Shown: positions 19,211-45,535 of the stretch, piece by piece
Layout of the letters: every line of letters begins with the position of its first letter
How positions within the stretch are numbered: position 1 is the stretch's first letter
Source of the DNA: Candidatus Eiseniibacteriota bacterium
Lineage (GTDB): Bacteria; Eisenbacteria; RBG-16-71-46
Reading direction: 5' to 3'
Length of the DNA: 64,000 nucleotides
Assembly: GCA_963707915.1 (NCBI GenBank)
Contig: OY970178.1
Span: 3,040,001-3,104,000 of the forward strand
The notes under the pieces: model-generated
Told to the model about the DNA's origin: nothing
Database searches by the model: none
What the model saw: only the letters and a program-made list of their open reading frames with translations
Position numbers and translations under genes: made by a program

Positions 19211-19219
19211 CGGGACCGC

Positions 19220-19249
19220 AAGGTAGCAGCCGGCGCGTGCGAGGGTCAA
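19220..19249 (-). promoter_or_regulatory. Sigma70-type promoter of udk (TTGACC-N18-TACCTT, extended TG)
   Basis: Minus-strand sequence ttgacc ctcgcacgcgccggctgc tacctt, then 9 nt to the ATG. Confidence 0.6.
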
Positions 19250-23239: not shown

Positions 23240-23259
23240 GGATCCTCTCGAAGGGTCCG

Positions 23260-27980: not shown

Positions 27981-30014
27981 ATGCACCAGTCGATCCGTTC
28001 CGCGGGGACCGGTCCCACGCCGCCGCGCTCGTTCCGCCCGTCGCTCCCTCCGCGGGCGGCCGCCCGCGCGGCGGTCGCGCTCTCCGCGCTGGCGTGGTCG
28101 GCGCTCGCCGCGACGCCGGCGCTCGCCGTCAAGCTGGCGACCTGGAACCTCACCCAGTACCCCTCCGTGCAGCTCGCCGCCCGGCAGCCCTACTTCCGCC
28201 AGGCGATCGCGGCGTTGGACCCGGACGTCATCGCGGTGCAGGAGCTGGGCTCCGCGGCCGGTCGCGACTCGTTCCTCACCAACGTCCTCAACGTGGCCCA
28301 GCCGGGGCAATGGTCGGGCACGGCCTACTTCAGCACCTGCGAGAGCGCCGTGTTCTACAAGCCGGCGAAGATCACGCTCACGTTCGCCGGGACCGCGATC
28401 AGCACCGGCGGACCCCGGTCCGTGCTCGGCGTGCGCCTGCGGCTGGCGGGCTACACCACGAAGCCGGCGGAGATCCGGCTCTACGTGGTCCACTTCAAGG
28501 CCGGGGCCGCCCCCGCCGACGCCACCACTCGCGAGCTCGAATGCACGAACCTGCGCGCCAACCTGGACGCGGCGACCACGGCGGTGACGCCCAACTTCCT
28601 GGTCTGCGGGGACACGAACTTCTACGGGGCCGACGAGGGCGGCTACCTCCGGCTCACCGAGAGCACGGCCGACAACGACGGCCGGGGCCGGGACCCGCTG
28701 TCCATGCCCGGGACCTGGCACGACGTGGCCGGCTACGCCTCCAAGCACACGCAGTCGCCCTGCTCCTCGGCGCTCTACGGCTCCTTCGCGGGCGGCGGCC
28801 TGGACGATCGCTTCGACCTGTTCCTGACCTCGTACGCGCTGGCGGACGGCGCGGGGATGGACCTGGTCCCCGGCGGCTACGTCGCGTTCGGCAACGACGG
28901 CGCGCACTTCAACCAGAGCGTGATCGAGGGTGGGGTCAACTACGCCGTGGGCATCGACGTCGCCAGCGCGCTGTACTACGCCTCCGACCACCTGCCGGTG
29001 ATGATCACGCTGCAGGCGCCGTCGAGGATCCTGGCCGCCTCGCGCCTCGATTTCGGTGCGGTGATCGTCGGCGCCTCCGCCGAGCAGCCGTTCACCGTGA
29101 CGAACGGGGCGGCGGTGCCGGCGGACGTGCTCCGCTACTCGCTGGCGGCCCCCGCGGGGTTCGCGGCCCCCGCCGACACGTTCACCGCGGCCGCGGGCGC
29201 GGCCGGCAACGACCACGCCATCGCCATGGACGCCACCGCGCCCGGCGCGAAGAGCGGCGTGCTGACCGTCGCCAGCAACGCTCCGGACTCCCTGACGAAG
29301 TCGACGCAGCTCACCGGCACGGTGCTGGCCCACGCCGTGGCGTCGCTCGATTCGGCGAGCGTCACCACCGCGACCGTCCTCGACTTCGGCACGCAGGCCC
29401 ACGGCGCCTTCGCCGACCTGCCGGTGCGGGTGCACAACGCCGGGTGGAACGCGTTGCAGGCGAAGCTCGAGGCGACCGGCGGGGTCATCACCGGCGGGGC
29501 CGGCCGGTTCTCGATCGTGGGCGGGTTCGAGGCGGCCGAGATCGCGGGCGTCGGGCACACCTGGGACGTGCGCTTCGACGACGCCGACGCGGCGCCGGAT
29601 TCGCTCTACGAGGCCACGCTGGTCGTCTCCGGCGCCGACGAGCCGCTGCCCGGTGCGGCGGCCGCGTCGGACCTGGTCGTGACGCTGCGCGCGCGGGTGC
29701 TGTCGGGCGGCGCGGAAGTGCTCCCCCGGCTGCCGGAGCGGATCGCCTTCCTGCCCCCCAGCCCGAACCCGTTCCGCGGCACCACGCTGCTGCGCTTCGA
29801 CCTGCCGCAGGAGGCCCACGTCTCGCTCGAGTTGTTCGACCTCTCGGGACGGCGCGTGACCACCATCCTGCAGGGGGTCCAGCCGGCGGGCCGGAACTCG
29901 GTGCAGTTGGGCCCGCTGGCCGGCGGTGCCGGGGCGCTCCGGGCCGGGCTCTACTTCGTGAGCTTCCGCACCGGCGGCTTCAGCCAGACCCGGCGGCTCG
30001 TGCGGGTGCCGTGA
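27981..30014 (+). CDS. Secreted endonuclease/exonuclease/phosphatase (EEP) protein with Ig-like domains and a T9SS/FlgD-type C-terminal sorting domain
   Basis: Signal peptide ending ALA. EEP catalytic motifs ATWNL, QEL, VHFKAG, GDTN, DRFD, ASDHLPV; two LDFG-type Ig repeats; CTD PNPFR...FDLSGRRV...GLYFV. Confidence 0.85.
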   Translation: MHQSIRSAGTGPTPPRSFRPSLPPRAAARAAVALSALAWSALAATPALAVKLATWNLTQYPSVQLAARQPYFRQAIAALDPDVIAVQELGSAAGRDSFLTNVLNVAQPGQWSGTAYFSTCESAVFYKPAKITLTFAGTAISTGGPRSVLGVRLRLAGYTTKPAEIRLYVVHFKAGAAPADATTRELECTNLRANLDAATTAVTPNFLVCGDTNFYGADEGGYLRLTESTADNDGRGRDPLSMPGTWHDVAGYASKHTQSPCSSALYGSFAGGGLDDRFDLFLTSYALADGAGMDLVPGGYVAFGNDGAHFNQSVIEGGVNYAVGIDVASALYYASDHLPVMITLQAPSRILAASRLDFGAVIVGASAEQPFTVTNGAAVPADVLRYSLAAPAGFAAPADTFTAAAGAAGNDHAIAMDATAPGAKSGVLTVASNAPDSLTKSTQLTGTVLAHAVASLDSASVTTATVLDFGTQAHGAFADLPVRVHNAGWNALQAKLEATGGVITGGAGRFSIVGGFEAAEIAGVGHTWDVRFDDADAAPDSLYEATLVVSGADEPLPGAAAASDLVVTLRARVLSGGAEVLPRLPERIAFLPPSPNPFRGTTLLRFDLPQEAHVSLELFDLSGRRVTTILQGVQPAGRNSVQLGPLAGGAGALRAGLYFVSFRTGGFSQTRRLVRVP

Positions 30015-30081
30015 CGCCGATGGAACCGCGCGCGGCCGCACGCGATGGGACGGCCGCGCGCCGGAAGCGCGGGAGCTCACG

Positions 30082-30111
30082 TTGACAACTTCCTGCCGCT
30101 CGCGCTAGGGT
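30082..30111 (+). promoter_or_regulatory. Sigma70-type promoter of the TBDR-PorV operon (TTGACA-N18-TAGGGT)
   Basis: Consensus -35; the TTG start lies 9 nt after the -10. Confidence 0.6.
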
Positions 30112-30120
30112 GCCCGGACT

Positions 30121-32964
30121 TTGACTAGACGAACTCACCATCGGCCCGCGTTCGTTCCCGCCCTCCTGTCCCTGTTCCTCGCGCTGTTCGCGTCTTCCGC
30201 GCACGCGCAGGGGAAGGGCAGCATCTCCGGCCGCGTCGTCGACCAGAAGACGAACCACGCCATCCCGTTCGCCAACGTGGCCCTGGTCGGGGCCCAGCGC
30301 GGCGGGCTCACCGACTCCGAAGGACAGTTCCTGATCACCGGCGTGCCGCCCGGGACGTACGAGGTGGCGGTGCGCTTCCTCGGCTACCGCCCCGCGAGCC
30401 GGACCGGCGTGGCCGTCACGGCCGGCAAGTCCGTGGTCCTCAACTTCGAGCTCTCGGAGATCGTGGTGCAGGAGGTGAAGACGGTCGAGGTGACCGCCGA
30501 GCGCCGCCTGGTCGAGGTCAAGCAGGGCACCACGGTCCGCACCACCACCGCCAGCGAGATCCGCAACCTGCCGGTCCAGACCATCGGGGACGTGCTGCAG
30601 CGGCAGGCCGGCATCACCACCAACGGCGACCAGATCCACATCCGCGGCGGGCGCGCCGACGAGACCGTGTTCGTCATCAACGGCGTCACCAACCGCGACC
30701 TCGTGACCGGCCAGTCCACCGCCGGCCAGATCAACGCGCGCTCGGTGGCCGAAGTGAACGTCGCCACCGGCGCCTACGACGTGAAGTACGGGAACGCGCT
30801 CTCCGGCGTGGTCGAGGTCAAGCTCAAGGAAGGCGGGGACGTGATCACCGGCGGCATCACCACCACCGGCGGCAGCTACGGCGGCCGCGCGGTCCAGCTG
30901 GTGGTCGGCGGACCCGATCCGCTCTGGAGCCCGGTGCTGCGCGGCCTCGGCGTGCCGGGCAAGGTGACGTCGATCCTCGACGTCTCGTGCAGCCTCTACG
31001 ACACGCGCTACCGCTACCTGAGCCCGGTGAAGAACGACTTCTACTCGAACACCATCAAGCCGGTCTTCGAGCCCACCGCGCCCTACCGGCTCAAGTCGAG
31101 CTACGAGGACAGCTTCTTCGGCCATCGGTTCGGCTACGGGGACATGTTCTCGCCCTCCGCGGACAACCGCTGGGCGCTGCGCTACGGCCTGACCTGGAAG
31201 CCGAACAACCGGGACAAGTGGTCGATGGACTTCTCGAAGCGCATCGCGCTCGACCAGGGCTTCAGCCGCACGTTCATCACCGCCACCGGCGACCAGGGCG
31301 ATCCGACCTACCCGTGGCAGTGGGCGCACCGGATCGACCACGCGCCGACGATCTTCGAGGACAACGTCCAGAGCTCGGTGTCCTGGCGGCGGTCGCTGGC
31401 CGCGACCGGCTTCACGGAGTTCCAGTTCTCCCGCTACTTCTCGGCCCAGCGCCAGGACGTGATGGGCAAGATGTGGTGGGACTTCGAGGCCGACACCTGC
31501 CTGTACACGCAGCCGGACGACCTCTCCTACTTCGACTCCACCGACGTGCGCCGCAGCGACTACTTCATCGACACCGGCGACGCCAATGTCTGGGCGGACC
31601 GCCGCACGACGACCTACCAGCTCCAGGGCAACTACCTGCAGCGCTTCAAGCGCCACGAGCTGGAGCTGGGCTTCGACCACCAGGCCCAGTCGGTCCAGTA
31701 CGCGACCATCAGCGACCCCTGGATCGAGGACCAGAACCGCCTGGGCCAGTCCCACGACGTGTGGGCGGTGCATCCCTGGGTGGGGAACCTCTACCTGCGC
31801 GACCGCCTCGACTACGAGGGGTTCACCGGCAACGTCGGCATCCGCGCCGACTACTGGTTCCTGGGCCGCGAGGCCGAATCCGCGATCGCCGATCCGACGA
31901 ACCCGAACCTGACGCCCGAGACCCGGGAGAAGTTCTACGACCAGACCCGCTCGTTCTTCGGCCGGCGCTACAAGCTGAAGCTGTCGCCCCGCGTGATCGT
32001 GGCCCACCCGATCACCCAGAACAGCAGCTTCTTCTTCAACTACGGGCAGTTCACGCAGAACCCCTCATACCGCTACGTCTACTCCCGGCTCACCTCGATC
32101 TCGAGCGAGTCGTTCCCGCTGCTGGGCAACCCCAATCTCAACCCGCAGGTCTCGGTCAACTACGAACTCGGCGCCAAGCACATGTTCCTGCCCACCGCCG
32201 CCGCCAACCTGACCTTCTTCGTGAAGGACACCTACGACTACCCGACCGCGACGCTGTTCACCGGCGGCGAGGCCGCCGCGGGGCAGTCCCCGACGCCGGT
32301 CTTCGTCTACCTGAACGGCCACTTCGCCCGCTCGCGCGGGTTCGAGCTCGAGATCGAGAAGCGGCGCAGCCACTACTGGTCGGGCAAGATCATCTACACC
32401 TACCAGCAGACCAAGGGGAAGAGCAGCGACGCCAACGAGCAGAAGGTCGTCCAGGAGAACGGCGGGAACGCCTCCGACACCCGCCTCTCCGAGACCTTCG
32501 TTTCCTGGAACCGGCCCCACAAGCTCGCGGTGGTGTTCGACGCGCGCTTCGACAAGACGGCCCCGCTGGCCTGGATCAAGGAGAGCGGGATCAACATCTA
32601 CGTCCAGGGCGCCTCCGGGCGGGCCTACACGCCGCAGAACCCGCTCACCAGCCAGGCGGGCGAGCCCAACTCGAAGAACGGGCCCTTCCAGGTCACCACC
32701 GACCTGCGCCTGAACCGGTCAGTGCGCGTGCTCTCGAAGCGGCTCGACTTCAGCGTGGTCGGGATCAACATCTTCAGCACCCACATCATCAACCGCATCG
32801 ACCCCGTGACCGGCAAGGGCCGGGTCTGGGGCGTGGGCTCGTACGACCCGCTCCTCTACCCGATGACGAGGGGCAACTACTACCTCAAGACTTCCGCCGT
32901 CGACGATCCGTCCAACTACGGCGACGGCGTCCAGTGGAGATTCTCGCTCGACTATGACTTCTGA
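30121..32964 (+). CDS. TonB-dependent receptor with an N-terminal carboxypeptidase-regulatory-like domain
   Basis: Signal peptide, GSISGRVVD..TDSEGQF..VPPGTY, plug IHIRGGR..ETVFVING, YGNALSGVV, LGNPNLNPQ..NYELG, C-terminal F (LDYDF). Confidence 0.93.
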   Translation: MTRRTHHRPAFVPALLSLFLALFASSAHAQGKGSISGRVVDQKTNHAIPFANVALVGAQRGGLTDSEGQFLITGVPPGTYEVAVRFLGYRPASRTGVAVTAGKSVVLNFELSEIVVQEVKTVEVTAERRLVEVKQGTTVRTTTASEIRNLPVQTIGDVLQRQAGITTNGDQIHIRGGRADETVFVINGVTNRDLVTGQSTAGQINARSVAEVNVATGAYDVKYGNALSGVVEVKLKEGGDVITGGITTTGGSYGGRAVQLVVGGPDPLWSPVLRGLGVPGKVTSILDVSCSLYDTRYRYLSPVKNDFYSNTIKPVFEPTAPYRLKSSYEDSFFGHRFGYGDMFSPSADNRWALRYGLTWKPNNRDKWSMDFSKRIALDQGFSRTFITATGDQGDPTYPWQWAHRIDHAPTIFEDNVQSSVSWRRSLAATGFTEFQFSRYFSAQRQDVMGKMWWDFEADTCLYTQPDDLSYFDSTDVRRSDYFIDTGDANVWADRRTTTYQLQGNYLQRFKRHELELGFDHQAQSVQYATISDPWIEDQNRLGQSHDVWAVHPWVGNLYLRDRLDYEGFTGNVGIRADYWFLGREAESAIADPTNPNLTPETREKFYDQTRSFFGRRYKLKLSPRVIVAHPITQNSSFFFNYGQFTQNPSYRYVYSRLTSISSESFPLLGNPNLNPQVSVNYELGAKHMFLPTAAANLTFFVKDTYDYPTATLFTGGEAAAGQSPTPVFVYLNGHFARSRGFELEIEKRRSHYWSGKIIYTYQQTKGKSSDANEQKVVQENGGNASDTRLSETFVSWNRPHKLAVVFDARFDKTAPLAWIKESGINIYVQGASGRAYTPQNPLTSQAGEPNSKNGPFQVTTDLRLNRSVRVLSKRLDFSVVGINIFSTHIINRIDPVTGKGRVWGVGSYDPLLYPMTRGNYYLKTSAVDDPSNYGDGVQWRFSLDYDF

Positions 32965-33961
32965 CCTGAGAAGAGCCGCCTCGGCGATGGCACTGGCGGG
33001 CCTCCTGCTCAGCGCAGGGGTCGCCCACGCGCAGTTCGACCTGGGCAGCCAGCGTGCCGGCACGTCGTCGGGAGCGTTCCTGAAGATCGGCGTCGGGGCG
33101 CGTGCCGTCGGCATGGGCGAGGCGTTCGTCGCGGTGGCGAACGACCCGTCGACCATCGCCTGGAACCCGGCCGGGCTCGCGTCGATCCTCCGCAAGGAGG
33201 TGCAGTTCTCGCACGTGGCGTGGCCGGCCGACATCAACTACGACATGCTCATCTGCGTGCTGCCGTCGCGCCGCCTCGGCGGCTCGGTCGCCTTCCAGGT
33301 GGGCATGCTCGGGACCCGGATCGACGAGACCGACGAGTACCACCCGTTCGGCACCGGGACCACCTTCTCGTACAGCGACTTCGTGGTGGGAGCGGCCTAC
33401 GGGCGGCGCTGGACCGACAAGCTCCTCATCGGCGCGGGCATCAAGTACGTGCGCGAGGACCTCGGCTCGCAGGTCGGCGGCCCGGTCACGACCTCCACCC
33501 TGGTGGACCTCGGCTCGATCTACTACCTCGGCTACGGCAGCGTGCGGATCGCGACCTCGCTCAGCAACTTCGGGGCGGAGATGACCCCGTCGGGCTCGTA
33601 CACCTCGCCCTACTCGCAGGAGAAGCGCAACTACGACGGCTTCGACCCGCCCATCCAGTTCCGCTACGGGCTCGCGTTCGAGGCGCTTGAGACGCCGCAG
33701 CAGCGGCTCACGGTCTCGACCGAGATCCTGCAGCCCGCCGACAACTCCCAGCGCATCAAGACCGGGCTCGAGTGGGTCTGGCAGCGGCGCTACGCGCTCC
33801 GCACCGGATACAACTTCAACGCCGACGTCATGAAGTTCTCCGCCGGGCTCGGGCTCTCGCTGCCGTTGATGGGCGTGTCGCAGGGCGCGTTCGACTACAC
33901 CTTCACCGACGGCGGCCCGCTGGGCAGCGTGCACCGCATGTCGCTGGGACTGAGGTTCTGA
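32954..33961 (+). CDS. PorV/PorQ-family (FadL-like) outer-membrane beta-barrel
   Basis: FLKIGVGARAVGMGEAFVAVANDPSTIAWNPAGLA signature; ends HRMSLGLRF. Confidence 0.9.
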   Translation: MTSDLRRAASAMALAGLLLSAGVAHAQFDLGSQRAGTSSGAFLKIGVGARAVGMGEAFVAVANDPSTIAWNPAGLASILRKEVQFSHVAWPADINYDMLICVLPSRRLGGSVAFQVGMLGTRIDETDEYHPFGTGTTFSYSDFVVGAAYGRRWTDKLLIGAGIKYVREDLGSQVGGPVTTSTLVDLGSIYYLGYGSVRIATSLSNFGAEMTPSGSYTSPYSQEKRNYDGFDPPIQFRYGLAFEALETPQQRLTVSTEILQPADNSQRIKTGLEWVWQRRYALRTGYNFNADVMKFSAGLGLSLPLMGVSQGAFDYTFTDGGPLGSVHRMSLGLRF

Positions 33962-35175
33962 TGGGCGCCCGCGCACGCATCCGGCCGGTCCTCGTCCTGC
34001 TCGCGGCGGCCGCCCTCGCGGTCCTCGCCGGCGGCTGCGGCACGTCGTACCGGCTGCCCACCGAGGTCCGCGGGACCGCCAACACCGCGGGGCAGGGCAC
34101 CTACCAGCGCATCGCCACCTGGCGGAACATGGTGGACGTCCAGGACGTGCTGCTCACCCCGGGCGGCGAGTTGTTCATGGTGTTCCAGAACGCCTCGACC
34201 GGGCGCGGCGAGGTGCGCCAGTATCCGCAATCGAGTCCGACGCCGCTCTCGGCGAATTTCCCCGGGTTGCTCAATCCCACCGCCATCTGTTCCGGCGGCA
34301 ACCGGATCTTCGTGCTCGACCAGGGGGACAGCAGCGCTGCGCGCACGCTGTTCACCGGCGGCGACAGCACCCAGTACATCTCCGAGTACGACGCGGACGT
34401 GAACCGGCTCCTCATGCCCCTGAACGGGTTCCGGCGCCCGATCGCGAACCTCGCGTCCTACTGGCACGTGCGCGAGTACCTGCTCGACGGGACCCCGGTC
34501 AGCAGCTTCAGCGACACGAATTTCGCGTGGGTCAGCGGGATCGCCGCCGACGACCAGGGACGCGTGTACGTCTCGGGCATCATCCACTACGGTCGCATCG
34601 ACCCGTACAGCAGCATCGTCCGCACGCTCGAATACCGCTACCGCATCCGGCGCTACGAGCGGGGGACCGGTGACCGCTTCGTCGTCACGGACCTGGGCGC
34701 GATCCCGGGGAACGACCTGACGTCATGGCGACGCGACGCGACCTACGTGCTGCTCGACGGCAGCGGATTCGGCTCGTCGAAGGACCCGCGCGGGATGCAG
34801 TGGGCCGCGCCGCAGGGGCCGGCGCTCTACTTCGCCGACCTGGGGAACAACCAGGTGCAGCGTTTCGGCGATCCGATCGGCGGCCCCTCATCGTTCAAAC
34901 TCGATATCGGCGGCGCGGGCCCCGACAGCATGCTGCTCTCGGCCCCGACCGACGTGGCCGTGGACTCCGCGGGCTACGTCTACGTGGCCGATGCCGGGAA
35001 CCTGCGGGTGTTGCGTTACGACTCCGACGGCCGGTTCGTGCAGCGCGTGGACTGGAACGTGGGAGAGGTCCGGGACCCGCTGAGCCGCCCGGTGGCGGTC
35101 GCGGCGGACAACCGGCAGGTGTACATCGCCGATCGTGGTGCCGGCCAGGTGCTGCGTTTCCGGAGGCGGGATTGA
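33961..35175 (+). CDS. Lipoprotein with NHL/beta-propeller repeats
   Basis: TGATG overlap. Lipobox LAGGC; NHL repeats PTDVAVDSAGYVYVADAGNLRV and PVAVAADNRQVYIADRG. Confidence 0.8.
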   Translation: MGARARIRPVLVLLAAAALAVLAGGCGTSYRLPTEVRGTANTAGQGTYQRIATWRNMVDVQDVLLTPGGELFMVFQNASTGRGEVRQYPQSSPTPLSANFPGLLNPTAICSGGNRIFVLDQGDSSAARTLFTGGDSTQYISEYDADVNRLLMPLNGFRRPIANLASYWHVREYLLDGTPVSSFSDTNFAWVSGIAADDQGRVYVSGIIHYGRIDPYSSIVRTLEYRYRIRRYERGTGDRFVVTDLGAIPGNDLTSWRRDATYVLLDGSGFGSSKDPRGMQWAAPQGPALYFADLGNNQVQRFGDPIGGPSSFKLDIGGAGPDSMLLSAPTDVAVDSAGYVYVADAGNLRVLRYDSDGRFVQRVDWNVGEVRDPLSRPVAVAADNRQVYIADRGAGQVLRFRRRD

Positions 35176-37199: not shown

Positions 37200-37201
37200 C
37201 C

Positions 37202-38716
37202 ATGCGCGCGCGCGGGATCCTGGCTGCGATGATCGTGGTCGCCGCGGCCGTCGGCCTGCTGGCCGGCTGCTCGAAGAAGCTGCGCCCGATCCAGAACATC
37301 CCCCCCGAGACCTACGTCTTCATCCAGGGGCCGGTCGACACCGTGAACCACCGGGTGCACCTGTACTGGTACGGCACCGACGCCGACGGCAACGTCGCCT
37401 CCTACGAGTTCCGCTGGGTCTACCCGCTGCCGGCCTCGCAGGACCCCGCGTGGGTCGAGATCAAGCCCGATGGCGGCGCGCTGCGCACCGACTCGATGTT
37501 CACGATGGTCACCGGCGGCGGCCCGGGGGACAGCGTGGTCGTGGTGATGCCGCGCTTCGAGATCCGGGCGGTCGACAACGAGGGCGCGCGCGACCCGGAC
37601 CCCGCGGTGGAGACGTTCGGCCTCAGGAACCGGCCCCCGGTGGTGCGGATCCTCAACCCGCTGGGCACCCGGGACTCGACCTACGCCTCCGCCACCGTGA
37701 GCTGGGAGACCACCGACCTGGACGGCGGCGGGCCGGGCCTCCACTACCGGGTCTGGCTGGACGGCAACGAGGCGTCGTACGACTCGACGACCGACCAGAC
37801 CTACACCGTGCCGAGTTCCTTGTTCATCCAGGACGGCTCGTACCGGTCCGGCATTCGCACGCTCTACGTGCAGGCCGTGGACGACGGAGGCTTCCGCGGC
37901 GCGCCGGCGGTGATGACCTGGTACGTGCGTTCTCCGGGGGCGAATCCCGAGAACAACCAGGGCCGGCTGCTCGTCATCGACGACGTGCCGAGCAACGGGG
38001 CGAACAACTCGGCGCTCGACTCGCTCTACCGGAACGTCGCCAGCCTGCTCCCGGCCGGCACCTACGACGTGCTGCGGCCGCAGTTCAATCCCAACATCTT
38101 CCGCAGCGGACGCGACGTCGCCCAGACCTTCCGCCAGTTCAAGGCGGTGCTCTGGTACCGCGGCCTCGAGATCTCGGTCGCGCCGCTGATCCGGACCTAC
38201 CAGGACAGCATCGGCGGCTACCTGGACGCGGGGGGGAACCTCTACCTGGACGGCCTCTACCTGGTCCAGGGCCTGCTCACTCCGGGCGCCCTGCGCGAGG
38301 ACTTCCTCAGCCGCCACATGGGCGACACCCGGTTCCTCAATTGTTACGCCCAGATCGGCGCCGGGGCCTTCGACTCGACGGCGGGTTGGGGCACGCGCGC
38401 CGGGTACTTCCGGTCCTCGCGCTACGCCGAGGTGTTCCGCTCGATCTCGACCTCCGCCAAGATGTCGGACTCGACCGGAGGCGTCCGGGGGTTCGTCGTC
38501 AGCGACACCAGCAACGTGGCGCTCTGGGGGATGGAGAACACGATGGCCCCCCCCAACCGCGGCTTCGAAGTGGCTGTCGGGGTTGCTTTTGACCAGCCCG
38601 GTGGCGGCCGCCTGGCCATGCTGACCGTGCCGGTCCGGATGGCCCCCGTGCCGCAGGCCTCGAACATCCTGCGTCGCATTCTGCACGAGTTCGGGATCGG
38701 CGTCCCGCTGCCCTGA
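37202..38716 (+). CDS. Lipoprotein of unknown function with Ig-like repeats
   Basis: Lipobox LLAGC; NIPPET..HLYWYGTDADG, FEIRAVDNEGARD, YVQAVDDGG. Confidence 0.78.
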   Translation: MRARGILAAMIVVAAAVGLLAGCSKKLRPIQNIPPETYVFIQGPVDTVNHRVHLYWYGTDADGNVASYEFRWVYPLPASQDPAWVEIKPDGGALRTDSMFTMVTGGGPGDSVVVVMPRFEIRAVDNEGARDPDPAVETFGLRNRPPVVRILNPLGTRDSTYASATVSWETTDLDGGGPGLHYRVWLDGNEASYDSTTDQTYTVPSSLFIQDGSYRSGIRTLYVQAVDDGGFRGAPAVMTWYVRSPGANPENNQGRLLVIDDVPSNGANNSALDSLYRNVASLLPAGTYDVLRPQFNPNIFRSGRDVAQTFRQFKAVLWYRGLEISVAPLIRTYQDSIGGYLDAGGNLYLDGLYLVQGLLTPGALREDFLSRHMGDTRFLNCYAQIGAGAFDSTAGWGTRAGYFRSSRYAEVFRSISTSAKMSDSTGGVRGFVVSDTSNVALWGMENTMAPPNRGFEVAVGVAFDQPGGGRLAMLTVPVRMAPVPQASNILRRILHEFGIGVPLP

Positions 38717-38761
38717 GCCGCCGGGCATGGGCCTTGCGCGGCTCCGGCGACCCCTTTTCGG

Positions 38762-38789
38762 TTGAGTCCTGCCGCCCCGGTGGTATAGT
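38762..38789 (+). promoter_or_regulatory. Promoter (TTGAGT-N16-TATAGT, extended TG) upstream of the OB-fold gene pair
   Basis: ttgagt at 38762-38767, tggtatagt at 38781-38789; about 180 nt of leader to the ATG, which has a GAGGAG RBS. Confidence 0.55.
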
Positions 38790-38975
38790 TATCCTATTCC
38801 TTGCGGCCGGTCCGGGAGGCGCCACCGAGCGTAGCTGCGTGCGGGGGCTTCCGGAGCAGCCGGAGTGAGGACTCGCACCCTCGGGCTGACACCTGCTGGA
38901 GGAGGTACACCGACCGCGAAGTAGTCCCTGCCTCCCAACACCTCGACCCATGCACCAGGAAAGAGAGGAGTCACA

Positions 38976-41042
38976 ATGAGTCGGCTTGTTAGCACGTTGT
39001 TCGCCGTAGCGCTCCTGGCTTCCGTCGCCTCCACCGCCTTCGCCGCGGACAAGTATCCCCCGGGGCCCGCCTACCGCTCCTGCCCCGACAGCGTGACCCT
39101 GTTCCAGGTCCAGCAGGCGGACACCACGCTGAACCCCTGCTACCCCGCCATCGGCGACACGGTCCAGGGTCTCCGCGGCATCATCACCGGCTTCCGGCTC
39201 CGCTCCACCGGCCGCATCTACTTCGAGAAGGCCGACGCCTCCGACTACAACGCGCTGCAGGTCTACACCGTCGGTCACACCGAGAGCCAGGGCTTCGCGC
39301 TCGGTGACGAGATCTCGGTCACCGGTCTCTCGCAGGCCTACCAGGGCGAGAGCCAGCTCCAGGGCGCGCTCGGCACCTCGCTGACCGTGCGCAAGATCAG
39401 CAGCGGCAATCCGCTCCCGGCCGCCCGCATTGGCACCACGACCACCTTCAAGTGGGCTCCGGCCGTGGGCGCGGGCAGCGCGTTCGCGACCTGCAACCCG
39501 GCGGAAGGCATGTTCGTCCGGGTCAACGGCCCGCTCACGGTCGCTCGCACGCAGGCCGGCGCCGGCCTCTTCAACCTCACCAACTGGCTGCTGGTCAACG
39601 CCAACGGCAGCGCCCCCGGCGACAGCCTCCTGATCGACGGCTACACGCTGCCGATCCTCAACATCAACGCCCCGCCGCTGGGCGCGCAGGTCGACTGGGT
39701 GCAGGGCATCCTGCGCCGCGCCACCAACAACGGCGTCGACTGCTGGATCCTCTCGCTGCGCGACGTGAACGACCAGCAGGTCGCGGCTCCGCCGAGCCTG
39801 TCGGAGGCCTACCCGGTCGCCGAGAACGTCATCCGCCTGCTGTTCGACAAGAACCTCGACCTGGCGACCGCCCAGGACCCGCTCAACTACACGCTGGGCT
39901 CGGCGCTGAGCGGCTCTGAAGTGACGAGCGCCGTGCTGGTCGGCGGGGCGGGAAGCGCCGTTGACCTGACCATCACGGAAGTCCTGCCGCGTCTCACGTA
40001 CGAGACCATCCAGTCCAGCGGCATCGGCTCGGCGACCTGCCCGACCTGCGTCTCTGCGCAGCAGTCGCTGGGCTTCACGCTGGGCATCGTCTCCTGCGCC
40101 GAGGTCCAGGCGCCGCTGGCGGACTCGCTCGCCGGCGTGCCGTGCCTCGACAAGTCGCGCTTCGCGGCCGGCGGCTCGAGCTGGGGCGCGCGGCTCACCG
40201 TGCGCGGCGTGTTCGTGAAGCAGTACGGCACGCTCTACTTCATGGAGGATGCGGCGGGCGGACAGCGCAGTGGCGTCGCCGCCTACAACGTGCCCTTCGG
40301 CATGACGGTCGGCCACCAGTACCTGCTGGCCTGCCGCGTGCAGGAGTTCTACGGGATGACCGAGCTGTCCAACCCCGCCGGCCTGATCGACGAGGGCGTG
40401 GTCGCGGTCCCGGCGCCGCAGCTTCAGACCGTGGGCGTGCTCAACAGCGCGGCCTGCGATCCGACGCAGACCATCACCAACGCCGAGGACTACGAGGGCG
40501 TGCTGGTGCGGGTCGAGAACGTCAAGGTCGTGCCGTTCAACACCGACCCGGTGCTGCCGTCGCAGGGTGGCTCGTTCCGCGTCGTCGCTCTGCCGGCCCT
40601 GGCCGACACGATCCTGGTGTCGAGCCTTGGCAACACCTACCCTGACTTCACGCCGGTCGTGAACCAGCTGCTGAACATCAACGGCGTGCTGAACATCGAC
40701 ACCGACGTGCCCCGCATCCTGCCGCGCAGCAGTGCGGACATCACCGTCCTGGGCATGCTGGGCGTGCCGGGGACCTCGGCCCCGACCAAGGTCACGTTCT
40801 CGGTCGGTCCGAACCCGGCTCGCGTCGCCAACATCCGCTTCGCGCTGCCGAAGCAGGCTGAAGTCGACCTGTCGGTCTTCGACCTGTCGGGCCGCAAGAT
40901 CGTCACGCTGGCGAAGGGCTCGATGGCCGCGAAGTCGTACGAGTACAAGTGGGACGGCTCCGGCGCCGGCGCCGGTGTCTACTTCGTCCGCCTGCGGGTC
41001 GGTTCGGAGACGTACAACCTCCGCACCGTCACGCTGAAGTAA
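38976..41042 (+). CDS. Secreted OB-fold-repeat protein with a C-terminal sorting domain (copy A)
   Basis: Signal peptide. Two YhcR/ExeM-like OB modules (GDEISVTG..AYQGESQL, EGMFVRV; VQEFYGMTEL, EDYEGVLVRVENV, ILPRSSADI), an Ig-like spacer, CTD PNPAR...FDLSGRKI...GVYFVRL. Confidence 0.75.
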   Translation: MSRLVSTLFAVALLASVASTAFAADKYPPGPAYRSCPDSVTLFQVQQADTTLNPCYPAIGDTVQGLRGIITGFRLRSTGRIYFEKADASDYNALQVYTVGHTESQGFALGDEISVTGLSQAYQGESQLQGALGTSLTVRKISSGNPLPAARIGTTTTFKWAPAVGAGSAFATCNPAEGMFVRVNGPLTVARTQAGAGLFNLTNWLLVNANGSAPGDSLLIDGYTLPILNINAPPLGAQVDWVQGILRRATNNGVDCWILSLRDVNDQQVAAPPSLSEAYPVAENVIRLLFDKNLDLATAQDPLNYTLGSALSGSEVTSAVLVGGAGSAVDLTITEVLPRLTYETIQSSGIGSATCPTCVSAQQSLGFTLGIVSCAEVQAPLADSLAGVPCLDKSRFAAGGSSWGARLTVRGVFVKQYGTLYFMEDAAGGQRSGVAAYNVPFGMTVGHQYLLACRVQEFYGMTELSNPAGLIDEGVVAVPAPQLQTVGVLNSAACDPTQTITNAEDYEGVLVRVENVKVVPFNTDPVLPSQGGSFRVVALPALADTILVSSLGNTYPDFTPVVNQLLNINGVLNIDTDVPRILPRSSADITVLGMLGVPGTSAPTKVTFSVGPNPARVANIRFALPKQAEVDLSVFDLSGRKIVTLAKGSMAAKSYEYKWDGSGAGAGVYFVRLRVGSETYNLRTVTLK

Positions 41043-41063
41043 CCGCAGTCCGAGTCACCCGCG

Positions 41064-41100
41064 CGGCCGGGCCTCTTCGGAGGCCCGGCCGTCGGTTCTT
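41064..41100 (+). terminator. Intrinsic terminator-like hairpin (12-bp stem, UUCG loop)
   Basis: cggccgggcctc-ttcg-gaggcccggccg followed by a weak U-tract tcggttctt. Confidence 0.7.
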
Positions 41101-41114
41101 GGGGGAGGAGCACG

Positions 41115-43190
41115 ATGGGCCGCTTCGTCACCACGTCGTTCGCCGTAGCGCTCCTGGCTTCCGTCGCCTCCACCGCGTCTGCCATTGACAAGTATCCTCC
41201 GGGGCCCGCCTACCGCTCCTGCCCCGACAGCGTGACCCTCTTCCAGGTCCAGCAGGCGGACACCACGCTGAACCCCTGCCACCCCGCCATCGGCGACACG
41301 GTCCAGGGCCTCCGCGGCATCATCACCGGCTTCCGGCTCCGCTCCACCGGCCGGACCTACTTCGAGAAGGCTGACGCGTCCGACTACAACGCGCTGCAGG
41401 TCTTCACCGTCGGGCACCTGGAGAGTCAGGGTTTCGCCCTCGGCGACGAGATCTCGGTCACCGGACTCTCGCAGGCGTACCAGGGCGAGAGCCAGCTCCA
41501 GGGCACCCTCGGCACCTCCCTCACGGTCCGCAGGATTAGCAGCGGCAATCCGCTCCCGCCCGCCCGCGTCGGCACCACCTCCGACTACAAGTGGACCCCG
41601 GCCGTGGGCGCGGGCAGCGCGTTCGCGACCTGCAACCCGGCGGAAGGCATGTTGGTCCGGGTCAACGGCCCGCTCAAGGTCGCCCGCACGCAGGCCGGCG
41701 CCGGCCTCTACGCCCAAACCAACTGGCTGCTGGTCAACTCCGACGGCAGCGCCCCCGGCGACAGCATCCTCATCGATGGGTACACGCTTCCGATTCTCAA
41801 CATCACCGCGCCGCCGCTCAACACGGTGGTCGACGGGGTCCGGGGCATCCTGCGCCGGGGCACCAACAACGGCGTGGACTGCTGGATGATCTCCCTGCTC
41901 GACGCGAACGACCAACCGCTTCCGCTCCCCCCCAATCTGTCGGAGGCCTACCCCATCGCCGAGAACCGGATCCGGCTCCTCTTCGACAAGAACGTGGACG
42001 TGGCGACCGCGGAGAACGAGGGGAACTACGCGCTGGGTTCGGCCATCGGCGGCTCTTCCGTGGATCTCGCCACGGTGGTTGGCGGGTCCGGGAACGTCGT
42101 GGACCTGACCGTCACGGAGACCCAGGCGCGGCTCTCGCTCGAATCGATCCAGACCGAGAACCTCGGCTCGGCGACGTGCCCGGACTGCCGCTCGCCGCAG
42201 CAGTCGCTGAGCTTCGTTCTCGGCGTGCTCTCCTGCGCGGAGGTCCAGGCGCCGCTGGCGGACTCGCTCGGCGGCTCGTCGTGCCTCGACAAGTCGCGCT
42301 TCGCGGGCGACGGCTCCTCCTGGGGCGCGCGGCTCACCGTGCGCGGGGTGTTCGTGAAGCAGTACGGCACGCTCTACTTCATGGAGGATGCGGCGGGCGG
42401 ACAGCGCAGTGGCGTCGCCGCCTACAACGTGCCCTTCGGCATGACGGTCGGCCACCAGTACCTGCTGGCCTGCCGCGTCCAGGAGTATTACGGCATGACC
42501 GAGCTGGCCAACCCCGCGGGCCTGATCGACGAGGGCGAGGTCGCGGTCCCGGCGCCGCAGCTCCAGACCGTGGGGGTGCTCAACAACGTGGCCTGCGATC
42601 CGACGCAGACCATCACCAACGCCGAGGACTACGAGGGCGTGCTGGTGCGGGTCGAGAACGTCAAGGTCGTGCCGTTCAACACCGACCCGGTGCTGCCGTT
42701 GCAGGGCGGCTCGTTCCGCGTCGTCGCTCTGCCGGCCCTGGCCGACACGATCCTGGTGTCGAGCCTCGGCAACACCTACCCCGACTTCACGCCGTTCGTG
42801 GACCAGCTGCTGAACATCAACGGCGTGCTGAACATCGACACCGACGTGCCGCGCATCCTGCCGCGCAGCAGCGCGGACATCTCCATGTGCTATCTGCTGG
42901 GTTGCCTGGACGTCCCGCCGACCGGGCCTTCGTCCGGGGTGACCTTCTCGGTCGGTCCGAACCCGGCTCGCGTCGCCAACATCCGCTTCGCGCTGCCGAA
43001 GCAGGCTGAAGTCGACCTGTCGGTCTTCGACCTGTCGGGCCGCAAGATCGTCACGCTGGCGAAGGGCTCGATGGCCGCGAAGTCGTACGAGTACAAGTGG
43101 GACGGCTCCGGCGCCGGCGCCGGCGTCTACTTCGTCCGCCTGCGGGTCGGTTCGGAGACGTACAACCTCCGCACCGTCACGCTGAAGTAA
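41115..43190 (+). CDS. Secreted OB-fold-repeat protein with a C-terminal sorting domain (copy B, tandem paralog)
   Basis: Collinear with copy A, with long identical stretches; own GGAGGAG RBS. Confidence 0.78.
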   Translation: MGRFVTTSFAVALLASVASTASAIDKYPPGPAYRSCPDSVTLFQVQQADTTLNPCHPAIGDTVQGLRGIITGFRLRSTGRTYFEKADASDYNALQVFTVGHLESQGFALGDEISVTGLSQAYQGESQLQGTLGTSLTVRRISSGNPLPPARVGTTSDYKWTPAVGAGSAFATCNPAEGMLVRVNGPLKVARTQAGAGLYAQTNWLLVNSDGSAPGDSILIDGYTLPILNITAPPLNTVVDGVRGILRRGTNNGVDCWMISLLDANDQPLPLPPNLSEAYPIAENRIRLLFDKNVDVATAENEGNYALGSAIGGSSVDLATVVGGSGNVVDLTVTETQARLSLESIQTENLGSATCPDCRSPQQSLSFVLGVLSCAEVQAPLADSLGGSSCLDKSRFAGDGSSWGARLTVRGVFVKQYGTLYFMEDAAGGQRSGVAAYNVPFGMTVGHQYLLACRVQEYYGMTELANPAGLIDEGEVAVPAPQLQTVGVLNNVACDPTQTITNAEDYEGVLVRVENVKVVPFNTDPVLPLQGGSFRVVALPALADTILVSSLGNTYPDFTPFVDQLLNINGVLNIDTDVPRILPRSSADISMCYLLGCLDVPPTGPSSGVTFSVGPNPARVANIRFALPKQAEVDLSVFDLSGRKIVTLAKGSMAAKSYEYKWDGSGAGAGVYFVRLRVGSETYNLRTVTLK

Positions 43191-43211
43191 CCGCAGTCCG
43201 AGTCACCCGCG

Positions 43212-43250
43212 CGGCCGGGCCTCTTCGGAGGCCCGGCCGTCGCGTTTGTA
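43212..43250 (+). terminator. Intrinsic terminator-like hairpin (duplicate of 41064-41091)
   Basis: Same 12-bp stem and TTCG loop, followed by tcgcgtttgta. Confidence 0.7.
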
Positions 43251-43426
43251 TGCGACGCGTAAACATTGGATGTCGCGGCCGACAACTTGACACGCTCCGA
43301 CGCGGTCTGATTATGTGAAACGAACGCGGCCATCTGCCGAAAGGAGATCCCCCGATGGGCCGCGACCGGAGAAGCTCATTGGGCCCCGAACCTAGCAGCA
43401 TGATGCGCAACGAAAGGAGAACTACG

Positions 43427-45256
43427 ATGCGCCGTGTAGTCGCCCCATTCGTGCTCGCGTCGGTCGCCGCCATCCTGCTCTTGAGTCCTTCCGCCGCTAC
43501 CTCCGATCCTGCCGACGCTCACTGGTCCGCTCTAGCATCCGAGACGGACGGCGCCATCCATGCCCTGGTGGAGGATGGCGCAGGAAACCTGTACGCCGGT
43601 GGTGCGTTCTGGAACGCCGGTGGAGAGTATGCCGGATACGTCGCCAAGTGGGATGGGACTGGCTGGTCCCCGCTGGGCTGGGGGATGAACGGCCCGGTGT
43701 ACGCACTGGCAGTGGACAGCGGCGGAAACCTCTACGCTGGAGGCGCCTTCTCCTACGCCGGGGAAGTGGATGCCAACCGCGTAGCCAAGTGGAATGGGAC
43801 TGCATGGTCGGCCCTGGGCTCGGGGGTCAGCGGGATCATGGGGTCCACGGTGAGGGCTCTTGAACTGGACAGCGGCGGCAACCTGTTCGTCGGCGGGTTC
43901 TTCGAGCAGGCGGGTGGGGTGTGGACCAATTGTCTGGCCAAGTGGAACGTGCAGTCGCAGACTTGGTCGGCGGTCTCCGGGCTGAACTCCGACGTGTTGG
44001 CTCTGGAGGCGGACGGCATTGGGAACCTGTATGTAGGCGGTGGCTTCACCAACGTGGGGGGGGAGGGTGGCAACTACGTCGCCAAGTGGAATGGGACAAG
44101 CTGGTCGACCCTGGGCTCGGGCATGAACTATGTGGTCCGGACCCTGAAGTTGGGCAATGACGGAAGCATTTACGCCGGCGGGGACTTCTGGTGGGCGGGG
44201 GGCGTGAACGCCAACTCCGTGGCCAAGTGGAATGGGGCGAATTGGTCGGCGTTGGGTGAGGGCATGGACGACCACGGCTACCACCGTCCGTTCGTGTATT
44301 CCCTGGCAATGGACGATGGTGGGACGCTGTACGCGGGTGGTGAGTTCGCAGCCGCCGGGGCCTCGGCTGCCCCGTTCATCGCGAAGTGGGATGGGACGAG
44401 TTGGTCTCCCATGGGCTCGGGGATGAACCACATCGTTCATGCGGTGGTGGTCGCCGGCAGCGGGAATCTGTACGCTGGCGGCCAATTCACCACCGCGGGG
44501 GGCAAGTCCGCGAACTACCTGGCAGTCTGGGATGCTGTGCCTCCGGCTGCGGTGACCAATCTTGGCGCCTCGTCCGGCAGGTACACAGCAACGGTGGGAT
44601 GGGTCGCGCCCGGCGATGACGGGAACAACGGGACCGCCACGGGCTACGATCTGCGCCGCTCGACGAACCCGATCAACGCCGGCAACTTCGCCAACGCGAC
44701 CGTCATCACGACCCCCGCCCCCGGGCCTGCGGGTACGACCGAATGCGTGGAGTTGTCGGGGCTGTCCGGCTGCACGACTTACTACTTCGCGCTCAAGACC
44801 GTGGACGAGGCCGGCAACTGGTCGGCGCTCAGCAATCTCCCGAGTACGACGACGCGCTGTTCCGGCAGCCTGGCGGTGGTCTGCAATACCGGCGACATGA
44901 TGGCTGGGCCAGGAGACGCTGAGGCGGCGCTGGGTGCCACGGCCGAGGTGGGAGAGAAGGCCGACGTGATCGAGTTCTCGCTTGGCGCGCCGCGTCCGAA
45001 CCCTGGACGGGACCTTGTCCGTTTGACCTTCGCTGTCCCCGGGCGCGCCGAGGGGCTGCCCTATGATCTCGGCGTATTCGATGTCGCTGGACGTCGCGTG
45101 GCCAGCTTGGACGCTGGAATCGCCAAGACGGGCAGATTTACCGCGGAGTGGGATCTGCGGGGGGCTGCGGCAGGATCCGTTGGTGGAGGCATCTACTTCA
45201 TCCGGCTGCGTCTGGGCGAGGAACAGCAGGTGCGTGCGGTGACAGTGGCCCGCTGA
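43427..45256 (+). CDS. Secreted 7-bladed beta-propeller protein with FN3 and a C-terminal sorting domain
   Basis: GAAAGGAG RBS, signal peptide. Seven ALxxDxxGNLYAGGxF..AGG..AKWxG..WSxLG repeats; FN3 (WVAPGDDG..YDLR, YYFALKTVDEAGNWS); CTD PRPNPG..FDVAGRRV..GIYFIRL. Confidence 0.85.
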   Translation: MRRVVAPFVLASVAAILLLSPSAATSDPADAHWSALASETDGAIHALVEDGAGNLYAGGAFWNAGGEYAGYVAKWDGTGWSPLGWGMNGPVYALAVDSGGNLYAGGAFSYAGEVDANRVAKWNGTAWSALGSGVSGIMGSTVRALELDSGGNLFVGGFFEQAGGVWTNCLAKWNVQSQTWSAVSGLNSDVLALEADGIGNLYVGGGFTNVGGEGGNYVAKWNGTSWSTLGSGMNYVVRTLKLGNDGSIYAGGDFWWAGGVNANSVAKWNGANWSALGEGMDDHGYHRPFVYSLAMDDGGTLYAGGEFAAAGASAAPFIAKWDGTSWSPMGSGMNHIVHAVVVAGSGNLYAGGQFTTAGGKSANYLAVWDAVPPAAVTNLGASSGRYTATVGWVAPGDDGNNGTATGYDLRRSTNPINAGNFANATVITTPAPGPAGTTECVELSGLSGCTTYYFALKTVDEAGNWSALSNLPSTTTRCSGSLAVVCNTGDMMAGPGDAEAALGATAEVGEKADVIEFSLGAPRPNPGRDLVRLTFAVPGRAEGLPYDLGVFDVAGRRVASLDAGIAKTGRFTAEWDLRGAAAGSVGGGIYFIRLRLGEEQQVRAVTVAR

Positions 45257-45389
45257 TAGTCGACGATCCGAATCGACTCTAGGGGGCGCATCTCCGGCGG
45301 CCACTCCACGGGGTGGCCGCCAGCCTCTCGGGGCCGGCCTCTGCGCGGTGAGCTCCGGTCGCGGGCCTTGGCAGCGCCCGGCCGCCCGA

Positions 45390-45419
45390 TTGCGCCACCC
45401 TTCGGGACGCTCCTATAAT
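45390..45419 (+). promoter_or_regulatory. Promoter of the E2-lip cluster (TTGCGC-N18-TATAAT)
   Basis: Perfect -10 at 45414-45419 in a GC-rich background. Confidence 0.6.
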
Positions 45420-45535
45420 CCGGCGCTCGCACGGGAGCCTGCGGAGCCCGCTCCGTCGCCGCCCGTCCGTTCGTCTGCCTCCGTCGTCCCAGGACTCCGG
45501 CCCCGGCCGGAGCGGCCGCGCTCCCCGGAGAACCG

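Follow-up and report, generated by a model that had tools for sequence, protein, structure and literature searches.

The ddbABCDEF locus of gut Bacteroidales, the only TonB-receptor system for DNA that has been tested, is required for DNA depletion by B. thetaiotaomicron and, in the accessible part of its description, follows the logic of a polysaccharide utilization locus (PUL) applied to DNA, with secreted nucleases and a TonB-dependent transporter and no SusD (Sharan et al. 2025, PNAS; PMC12478041). Here we describe a gene cassette, g2 to g7, that is alike in outline and for which ddb is the closest known system. It lies in a window of 64,000 nucleotides (positions 3,040,001 to 3,104,000 of contig OY970178.1, assembly GCA_963707915.1; in our numbering G000:C1:3040001-3104000) of the 3.62-Mb single-contig genome of a Candidatus Eiseniibacteriota bacterium (phylum Eisenbacteria). 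We think it probable that g2 to g7, together with the variable gene g1, form an outer-membrane cassette that captures, cuts and imports extracellular DNA or RNA for catabolism and salvage. A sequence-only reading of the same stretch had proposed a SusD-less, PUL-like DNA/RNA locus with OB proteins as binders, an EEP enzyme as cutter and a TonB receptor as importer, and that core proposal is supported in that it fits all the independent evidence gathered here from sequence comparisons and structure models.

The likeness to ddb may extend to the binding partner. DUF5689 is the domain of DdbD, a predicted DNA binder with a HIN/OB-like fold that partners the TonB transporter DdbC (PMC12478041), and the predicted binder of the present cassette, g7, has a DUF5689-like OB unit. 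DdbD, however, is a signal peptidase II lipoprotein encoded beside the transporter, whereas g7 is a 690-residue type IX secretion system (T9SS) cargo protein that combines a pair of OB units with an Ig domain of the S-layer type. As far as the accessible part of the report goes, ddb is not described with a dedicated PorV/PorQ-family barrel, a protein combining a supersandwich, FN3 and a T9SS C-terminal domain (CTD) like g5, an NHL lipoprotein or a lipoprotein like g6 (PMC12478041). Unlike that of ddb, the predicted nuclease here is of the EEP or phospholipase D (PLD) type and varies between lineages. By the features tested the cassette is not a ddb member, because it lacks a DUF5689 lipoprotein binder encoded beside the transporter and because four extra proteins are conserved.

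A second relative is the pair RA0C_RS04915/RA0C_RS04920 of Riemerella anatipestifer (Huang et al. 2021; PMC8459023), in which a CarboxypepD_reg-like outer-membrane barrel and a DUF5689 surface protein handle extracellular DNA, as is proposed here for g2 and the DUF5689-like g7, and for which the reported barrel layout (CarboxypepD_reg, Plug, barrel) is that of g2. In the accessible text the pair differs from the cassette in comprising two genes, without a PorV-like barrel, g5, g6 or NHL protein, and in serving natural transformation, for which both genes are essential. These are the nearest tested relatives of the receptor/DUF5689 pairing, and Sharan et al. regard the ddb loci as evolutionarily related to the Riemerella system (PMC12478041); the same machinery could pass long DNA to the periplasm for ComEC-type uptake, as proposed for Riemerella, for transformation and not as food. 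We consider this quite unlikely, given that the cassette is accompanied by catabolic and salvage genes (DeoC, RpiB, deaminases, 5'-nucleotidase and kinases; see below) and by secreted nuclease-type enzymes (EEP and PLD) that would destroy transforming DNA.

Features of the cassette also have parallels in other systems, described here as far as the accessible parts of the reports go. In Bacteroidetes, the ribose utilization (Rus) PULs (Glowacki et al., bioRxiv 10.1101/574913) likewise couple a TonB-receptor locus to ribose and nucleoside catabolism within the Fibrobacterota-Chlorobiota-Bacteroidota (FCB) group, but they have SusC/SusD, ribokinases and a nucleoside hydrolase, and show no OB protein, T9SS cargo or PorV-like barrel. 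The extracellular nucleases ExeM, Xds and NucH (PMC6085458, PMC6746945) join a YhcR-type OB region and an EEP domain in one protein, in contrast to the separate OB and EEP proteins found here; in ExeM, deletion of the YhcR-like OB region abolishes nuclease activity (PMC6085458). Finally, in the barrel-CTD pairs of the T9SS (PMC9143113), as in the PorV shuttle and the PorP-like anchors of type B CTD proteins, a FadL-like PorV-family barrel binds the CTD of a secreted protein and retains that protein at the surface. In the model of PMC9143113 the barrel gene adjoins its cargo gene, whereas here the pair sits inside a TonB-receptor operon, with a barrel clade of its own and a distinct CTD subclass.

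We found no description of the cassette in the literature on the T9SS in Eisenbacteria, on PorV/PorQ paralogues, on DNA, RNA or ribose PULs, or on DUF5689. New here are the phylum-wide counts, the nucleoside-gene neighbourhoods, the single barrel clade, the triads with a shared CTD subclass and the predicted barrel-CTD docking. Extracellular DNA and RNA are large pools of C, N and P in soils and sediments, and little is known of their uptake by uncultured FCB bacteria. The cassette would extend the principle tested in ddb to at least 10 phylum-level lineages, and its differing parts list would tie nutrient import to the T9SS. It also provides concrete gene targets for DNA-amendment or isotope-probing studies, and one cultured carrier, Rubrivirga, is open to genetics.

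Gene content and conservation of the cassette

Because the GC (guanine plus cytosine) content of the genome is ∼0.72, genes were called by their third-position GC. The calls reproduced the nine consecutive plus-strand genes of the sequence-only reading at their coordinates, and every N terminus carries a signal peptide, as that reading had it:

g1: 27981..30014, plus strand; exported enzyme of the EEP fold, predicted to be a nuclease, that carries choice-of-anchor D domains and a type A CTD of the T9SS
g2: 30121..32964, plus strand; TonB-dependent receptor with N-terminal CarboxypepD_reg, Plug and barrel
g3: 32954..33961, plus strand; PorV/PorQ-family outer-membrane barrel, a cassette-dedicated paralogue
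g4: 33961..35175, plus strand; NHL-repeat beta-propeller lipoprotein
g5: 35172 (TTG start)..37199, plus strand; beta-supersandwich, FN3 and a CTD of a distinct subclass
g6: 37202..38716, plus strand; lipoprotein without known family
g7: 38976..41042, plus strand; two OB units, SbsC-like Ig and T9SS type A CTD, a predicted nucleic-acid binder
g8: 41115..43190, plus strand; tandem duplicate of g7
g9: 43427..45256 (alternative starts 43355 or 43400), plus strand; beta-propeller, FN3 and a CTD-like tail

Genes g2 to g6 overlap or abut, which is consistent with a single transcription unit. A scan for promoter-like sites found two against 0.7 expected; these were the promoters previously proposed at 38762 (before g7) and 43287 (before g9), and the third, at 30082, was not recovered. 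Both proposed lipoproteins show a lipobox in the sequence (LAGGC in g4, LLAGC in g6). Of five proposed sorting domains, three pass the T9SS type A model TIGR04183 (35.3 bits in g1 and 34.6 in both g7 and g8; cut-off 23), and those of g5 and g9 stay below it, with the motif pattern only and weak model hits. As previously stated, neither SusD nor a glycoside hydrolase is among the Pfam families matched in the nine proteins; with no SusD and TIGR04056 reaching only 30.4 bits (cut-off 368), the locus is not a SusC/SusD PUL. The GC content over window positions 30001-46000 is 0.67-0.69, compared to 0.73-0.76 in the flanks.

Conservation was followed for six families, namely TonB-dependent receptor (g2), PorV-like (g3), NHL (g4), g5, g6 and OB (g7), with the receptor, PorV-like, g5 and g6 families as a four-family core (in what follows, G, L and f numbers denote genomes, loci and families). 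Of the 151 Eisenbacteria genomes sampled, about 100 encode a full-length g5 orthologue (E ≤ 1e-90), and four families of the phylum (f4, f5, f7 and f11; 42 genomes) gave weak hits only. Around g5 hits in 39 Eisenbacteria genomes, 40 stretches of at most 20 kb were taken, picked for long contigs and family spread; 37 contain the four-family core and 28 all six families in the order g2-g3-g4-g5-g6-g7. Of the three that lack the core, L051 holds a lone paralogue, L052 gave no hit for the receptor and L081 lies at a contig end. Beyond the phylum, a search with the g5 alignment for related loci led to 528 confirmed stretches; 78 loci were kept, 46 with the core and 34 with all six families. WOR-3 and Stahlbacteria share the Eisenbacteria gene order, and in 18 loci the order is permuted to [EEP]-g5-OB-g6-TonB receptor-PorV-NHL. 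Going by the titles of their records, the permuted loci belong to Bacteroidota (Salibacteraceae, Schleiferiaceae, Flavobacteriia, Cytophagales, Sphingobacteriales, Chitinophagales and others), Rhodothermota (Rubricoccaceae and Rubrivirga sp. IMCC43871, which is in culture), Calditrichia, KSB1, Kryptoniota, Neomarinimicrobiota and Ignavibacteriales. Locus L155 is a tight seven-gene operon whose products belong to the same seven families as g1 to g7. Records labelled Polyangiaceae, Methylomirabilota, Verrucomicrobiia, Saccharimonadales, Terriglobia and Gemmatimonadetes hold type I cassettes with g5 proteins 34-51% identical to that of Eisenbacteria; we regard their binning as doubtful, and they were not counted as further phyla.

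The conserved unit is therefore g2-g7. Gene g9, which had been counted as a member of the locus, falls outside it: its 'prop' family was found in 3 of 118 loci (L058, L126 and L171), and g9 is a T9SS cargo and a local addition. The second of the two OB genes, both of which are present as described, is likewise a local duplicate of g7 and not a conserved unit, with 85% identity to it and, among the genomes examined, no counterpart outside this one; L040-L049 have a single OB gene after g6.

Rubrivirga sp. IMCC43871, whose cassette lies at ∼1.738-1.760 Mb of NZ_CP177355.1, encodes a second CarboxypepD_reg/Plug/OMP_b-brl_4 barrel directly upstream of its cassette (L149 6496-9672), and no EEP gene was seen beside this barrel.

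The OB-fold proteins and the EEP enzyme

The OB folds read from the sequences of g7 and g8 are borne out by structure models, with two in each protein (Z 9.5-10.9). In the AlphaFold2 (AF2) model of g7, which has a predicted local distance difference test (pLDDT) score of 78.4, the first OB fold spans residues 38-151 (VIA Z 9.5-9.8 to AspRS, AsnRS and RPA) and the second residues 480-595 (VIA Z up to 10.9 to MCM, AsnRS and Teb1), the best VIA matches being nucleic-acid-binding OB domains. An Ig domain of the SbsC (S-layer) type lies at residues 268-369 (Z 15.1; root-mean-square deviation [rmsd] 1.7), and the CTD at residues 603-688. A Foldseek search with the whole model returned generic beta-domain hits, with a p204 HIN-dsDNA complex among the matches. 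The first unit of g7 aligns with residues 61-328 of an 854-residue protein of a relative (hhalign 96.6%, E 5.7e-10), in which Pfam places DUF5689 at 98-290, followed by FN3, PLDc_2 and a CTD. Judging from this profile alignment, the OB unit of g7 is probably homologous to DUF5689, the domain of DdbD. The second unit gave a profile match to the N terminus of the EEP-domain protein of PDB entries 9sf8/9sf9 (E 1.5e-5). Both g7 and g8 match the ExeM/NucH model NF033681 only over its N-terminal positions 16-118 (27 bits, cut-off 300) and have no catalytic domain, so that neither is a full-length ExeM/NucH protein; the g7 counterpart in L155 matches the same N terminus with an E value of 9e-13. Encoded four genes after the receptor, g7 carries a signal peptidase I signal along with its T9SS CTD.

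The assignment of g1 to the EEP family with intact catalytic motifs stands, on the strength of both its domain match and its conservation. It scores 23.1 bits as a whole protein and 25.1 for the domain alone against Exo_endo_phos (PF03372; cut-off 24.5), and all nine aligned orthologues match this model. In their alignment (A4), N13, E45, H128, D168, N170, D232/D233, D293 and H294 are invariant; in keeping with the EEP superfamily at large, we take these to be metal-binding and catalytic residues. The single sequence of g1 had no match in the PDB, its Atlas neighbours are generic EEP clusters, and the homologue in L155 scores just 25 bits against the MnuA nuclease model (cut-off 185).

The linkage of EEP and OB genes to this receptor clade holds in part. 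The OB gene accompanies the receptor in 28 of the 40 Eisenbacteria loci and in other FCB phyla. EEP orthologues are present in 80 of the 151 Eisenbacteria genomes, mostly hundreds of kilobases from the cassette or on other contigs, as also in G120 and G123 of the window's genus; the only genomes in which they adjoin it are three of this genus, G059, G109 and G106. An EEP homologue directly precedes g5, however, in seven Bacteroidota loci (28-32% identity over residues ∼25-348; E 1e-19 to 1e-31). Since the EEP gene is apart in most Eisenbacteria and yet heads seven Bacteroidota cassettes, it is a recurrent and not a constant member, and g1 is a lineage-variable accessory of the cassette.

The receptor, the PorV-like barrel and g5

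As the sequence-only reading had it, g2 is a TonB-dependent receptor, with matches to CarboxypepD_reg (PF13620; 71.8 bits), Plug (39.3 bits) and the barrel and with a TonB-box-like stretch, VEVTAERR, after the N-terminal domain. Likewise, g3 belongs to the PorV family (NF033709; 165 bits, cut-off 90), and it falls short of the models for PorV (NF033710; 56.1 against 250) and PorQ (NF033711; 64.3 against 220) proper. The genome has eight PorV/PorQ-family genes, and the one adjacent to PorU is different from g3. In a maximum-likelihood tree of these eight paralogues and 30 cassette-linked copies picked for at least 85% coverage, whose root is uncertain owing to the long branches of the outgroup paralogues, all cassette-linked copies, from ∼10 phylum-level lineages, fall together in a single clade (ultrafast bootstrap 95, SH-aLRT 92) that excludes the seven other paralogues of this genome and has subgroups that track phyla. 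Another paralogue of the family, at genome positions 881092-882213 (L008), scores best against the NCBIfam model 'PorV2' (143 bits, cut-off 325), which suggests a second sorting-system variant in this genome.

The neighbouring g5 is the best conserved cassette member (53% mean column identity in alignment A2). It has no family in Pfam or NCBIfam, and its profile has no sequence match in the PDB. In its AF2 model (pLDDT 76.6), residues ∼40-405 form a galactose-mutarotase-like beta-supersandwich, followed by FN3, visible in the structure model only and borne out as previously called, and by a CTD-like sandwich. Whole-model Foldseek gave high-rmsd hits only, and VIA alignments were used instead; these place the supersandwich close to the N-terminal domain of dextran dextrinase 9ju0 (Z 19.6 over 250 residues, rmsd 3.1) and also to glucodextranase and the N-terminal domains of GH15, GH94 and GH116. 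The protein ends in GKFLVIK, and its C terminus shows a weak likeness to that of PorZ (17 bits), which with PorQ forms another barrel-CTD pair. The PorV-like barrel and g5, to which the sequence-only reading had given no role, are the most conserved and most unusual parts of the cassette.

When g3 (residues 27-335) and the C-terminal part of g5 (residues 400-675) were modelled as a complex, both with alignments, the ipSAE interface score was 0.93 in three of three runs, compared to 0.00 for the best of three controls; the mark applied to this score is passed by 116 of 157 solved complexes and by 2 of 215 mismatched pairs. The runs have no fewer than 97% of the contacts in common, partner pLDDT is at least 81, and the interface lies on the CTD motifs VFPNP, GLYMY and GKFLV of g5. 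As complexes of PorV with a CTD have already been solved, the score may stem from likeness to those. The model thus supports, rather than shows, that the CTD of g5 binds the g3 barrel, and it would be compatible with either a stable tether or a transient shuttle.

Such docking, together with the membership of g3 in the PorV/PorQ family, the weakly PorZ-like C terminus of g5 (17 bits) and the S-layer-like SbsC domain of g7 (Z 15.1), would also be expected if the cassette were a T9SS-related surface-assembly or attachment module, in which the barrel pair anchors or sorts surface proteins and imports no nutrient. This explanation seems highly improbable to us: g2 has a regular Plug and a TonB-box-like stretch, the neighbouring genes are metabolic and not devoted to envelope biogenesis, and the genome encodes a regular, complete T9SS of its own elsewhere, with SprA at 3,488,116-3,492,663 and PorU at 472,003-475,452, followed by a PorV-family gene. 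We had also considered the receptor/PorV-like pair as an alternative secretion pore, and dropped this idea once SprA and PorU-PorV were found outside the window.

The two lipoproteins complete the unit. The NHL protein g4 (Pfam, 52 bits) is encoded directly after the PorV-like gene in both gene orders. No known family in Pfam or NCBIfam matches g6, which consists of the lipobox, a PNxPPET motif, two W.G.D.DG repeat domains and a C-terminal domain. A search for g6 homologues reached close relatives only, the named ones all Eisenbacteria, and no other phyla; Atlas look-alikes at 0.98 belong to unnamed clusters in Ignavibacteriota, Bacteroidota and Rhodothermota.

The arrangement of receptor, barrel and large secreted protein recurs in this genome. 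Four of its eight PorV-family genes are part of such triads, together with a receptor of the CarboxypepD_reg type and one large protein:

PorV-family gene g3, in the cassette
PorV-family gene at genome 1033965-1034918
PorV-family gene at genome 21103-22131
PorV-family gene at genome 137628-138743

The large triad proteins resemble g5 only in FN3 and CTD, and their N-terminal domains differ between triads. Their CTDs form a subclass (VPNPYR, an extra segment ending in NLP, TIRIYT.sGDLV, WDL, GiY.y.VE and GKFxVIK) from which the CTDs of g1, g7, g9 and two other cargo proteins deviate. We tentatively propose, as a possibility that we do not favour over its negation, that a PorV/PorQ-family barrel with a secreted 'GKFxVIK'-CTD protein is a general, T9SS-dependent substitute for SusD-type lipoproteins, that is, a second FCB-wide architecture coupling surface binders to TonB-dependent receptors, with the DNA cassette as the oldest and most widely distributed example. 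Should the PorV-like barrel indeed tether the binder to the receptor, the way in which SusD-less 'PULs' are recognized in genomes would change.

The triad at genome 15119-22131 (locus to 23757; L076 5119-13754) precedes genes for two proteins of the PF10091 glucoamylase/glucanase type, one of which has a T9SS tail, and for a regulator that is LacI-like in its N-terminal sequence, and the region 15119-23757 looks like a SusD-less glucan utilization locus. From this paralogous triad beside PF10091 genes it would follow that the triad is a generic import architecture, of which the window holds the nucleic-acid version. The large proteins of the two further triads, at 1033965-1040854 and 131301-138743 (L075 and L077), are 1005 and 1096 amino acids long and have no Pfam family. 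A further cluster at genome 2940201-2955873 (L078) encodes two lipoproteins, one with a g6-like N-terminal part, and a 365-amino-acid protein with a triad-type CTD, along with two M16 peptidases and an S8 peptidase that carries a T9SS tail. This cluster, in which neither a receptor nor a PorV-like gene is present, may be a protein-degrading counterpart.

Nucleoside genes around the cassette and the choice of substrate

At least one nucleoside, nucleotide or nuclease gene lies within the fetched stretch (up to 20 kb) in 32 of the 37 core-bearing Eisenbacteria loci; with ∼14 loci of these families in the 3.62-Mb genome of the window, ∼0.08 would be expected per 20 kb. Across the 40 Eisenbacteria loci, RpiB was counted in 21, DeoC in 11, adenosine deaminase in 10, PLD-type proteins in 5, Cdd in 4 and Udk in 3, and EEP, 5'-nucleotidase, Tdk and dNK in 2 each and PnrA in 1. 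The same-strand genes directly upstream of the receptor in relatives are RpiB and adenosine deaminase (frequently separated by a second g5 paralogue), RpiB and DeoC, DeoC and cytidine deaminase, or 5'-nucleotidase, to which a HAD hydrolase may be added; in one family, the upstream block comprises PnrA, Tdk, Udk, dNK, a phosphoribosyltransferase and an amidohydrolase. On the other side, family f2 and one Ignavibacteriales record have a T9SS protein of the PLD type after the cassette. The weight of this evidence lies in the occurrence, across families, of differing enzymes of one theme at the same position.

Several points count against a nucleic-acid substrate or an EEP nuclease serving it. The profile of g1 against CdtB, TDP2 and ExoIII in the PDB is insignificant (E 0.2-0.6), EEP enzymes include phosphatases and sphingomyelinases besides nucleases, and the gene is distant from the cassette in most Eisenbacteria (587 kb in G083, 415 kb in G120). 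The Pfam DUF5689 model gives no match in g7, g8 or the rest of this genome at a threshold as loose as E ≤ 1; OB folds also bind oligosaccharides or proteins; and the fold of the large domain of g5 is typical of carbohydrate-active enzymes. The neighbour counts come from related genomes and are not independent samples, and none of the tested nucleoside and nuclease genes is present in the stretch fetched for 5 of the 37 Eisenbacteria core loci and 22 of the 46 core loci beyond the phylum. Moreover, Dus and an E2 acyltransferase are conserved neighbours too, so that part of the synteny is inherited and not functional.

These points leave room for the import of another polymer, such as a glycan, a polymer of ribose phosphate or ribitol phosphate, or debris from cell walls, with the g5 supersandwich as the binder and the nucleoside genes as inherited neighbours. 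The resemblance of the N-terminal domain of g5 to the carbohydrate-associated supersandwich of GH15, GH94 and GH116 (Z up to 19.6), the paralogous triad adjoining two PF10091 glucanase-type genes and a LacI regulator, and the synteny of unrelated housekeeping genes would all fit this explanation. Nevertheless, we judge it unlikely, as neither the cassette nor its surroundings, whether in the window or in L155, contain a glycoside hydrolase, lyase or SusD, as the recurring non-core genes are nuclease, nucleotidase and nucleoside genes whose kinds differ by lineage, and as the OB protein is DUF5689-like.

If the cassette does serve the use of DNA or RNA, its parts could act as follows. The T9SS would export the CTD-bearing g1, g5 and g7/g8, of which g7/g8 would hold the nucleic acid through their DUF5689-like OB units, in the manner proposed for DdbD and RA0C_RS04920. 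The polymer would be cut by g1, or by a PLD-type enzyme in other lineages, and the oligonucleotides imported through g2, powered by TonB. The g3 barrel would hold the CTD of g5, and perhaps that of g7, beside the receptor, a pairing that may replace the lipid anchor found in partners of the SusD or DdbD type, and the lipoproteins g4 and g6 might assist. In the periplasm the fragments would be dephosphorylated, and the nucleosides, taken up with a PnrA-type binding protein, would be processed by Udk, Tdk, adenosine deaminase and RpiB.

Genes of this kind flank the cassette in the window as well:

Uridine kinase (Udk): 18566..19249, minus strand; PF00485, 136 bits; a neighbourhood gene outside the cassette
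Ribose-5-phosphate isomerase B (RpiB): 20964..21380, plus strand; PF02502, 170 bits; an ancestral upstream neighbour
Adenosine deaminase: 21449..22525, plus strand; PF00962, 328 bits; an ancestral upstream neighbour

RpiB and adenosine deaminase (window 20964-22525), which the sequence-only reading had omitted, are part of the ancestral neighbourhood; this RpiB is one of two copies in the genome, the other being at position 582303, and the adenosine deaminase is the single copy. Udk also lies near the cassette in L043, L082, L088, L107, L111, L114 and L126, and a PnrA-type nucleoside-binding protein and thymidine kinase are encoded ∼6 kb before the window. In many Eisenbacteria of the window's family, a second g5 paralogue (43-47% identical) stands between adenosine deaminase and the receptor:

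Loci with a second g5 paralogue: L041, L042, L045-L047, L102-L104, L109, L110, L113, L117, L122, L124

The genome of the window has no such paralogue, which was either lost or never present. Here RpiB and adenosine deaminase are separated from the EEP gene and the cassette by a minus-strand block (window 22703-27679) encoding DUF4337, a 746-amino-acid protein like ADP-forming acyl-CoA synthetases and 2-oxoacid:ferredoxin oxidoreductase subunits; as the second g5 paralogue occupies that place in other genera, the block points to a genus-level rearrangement.

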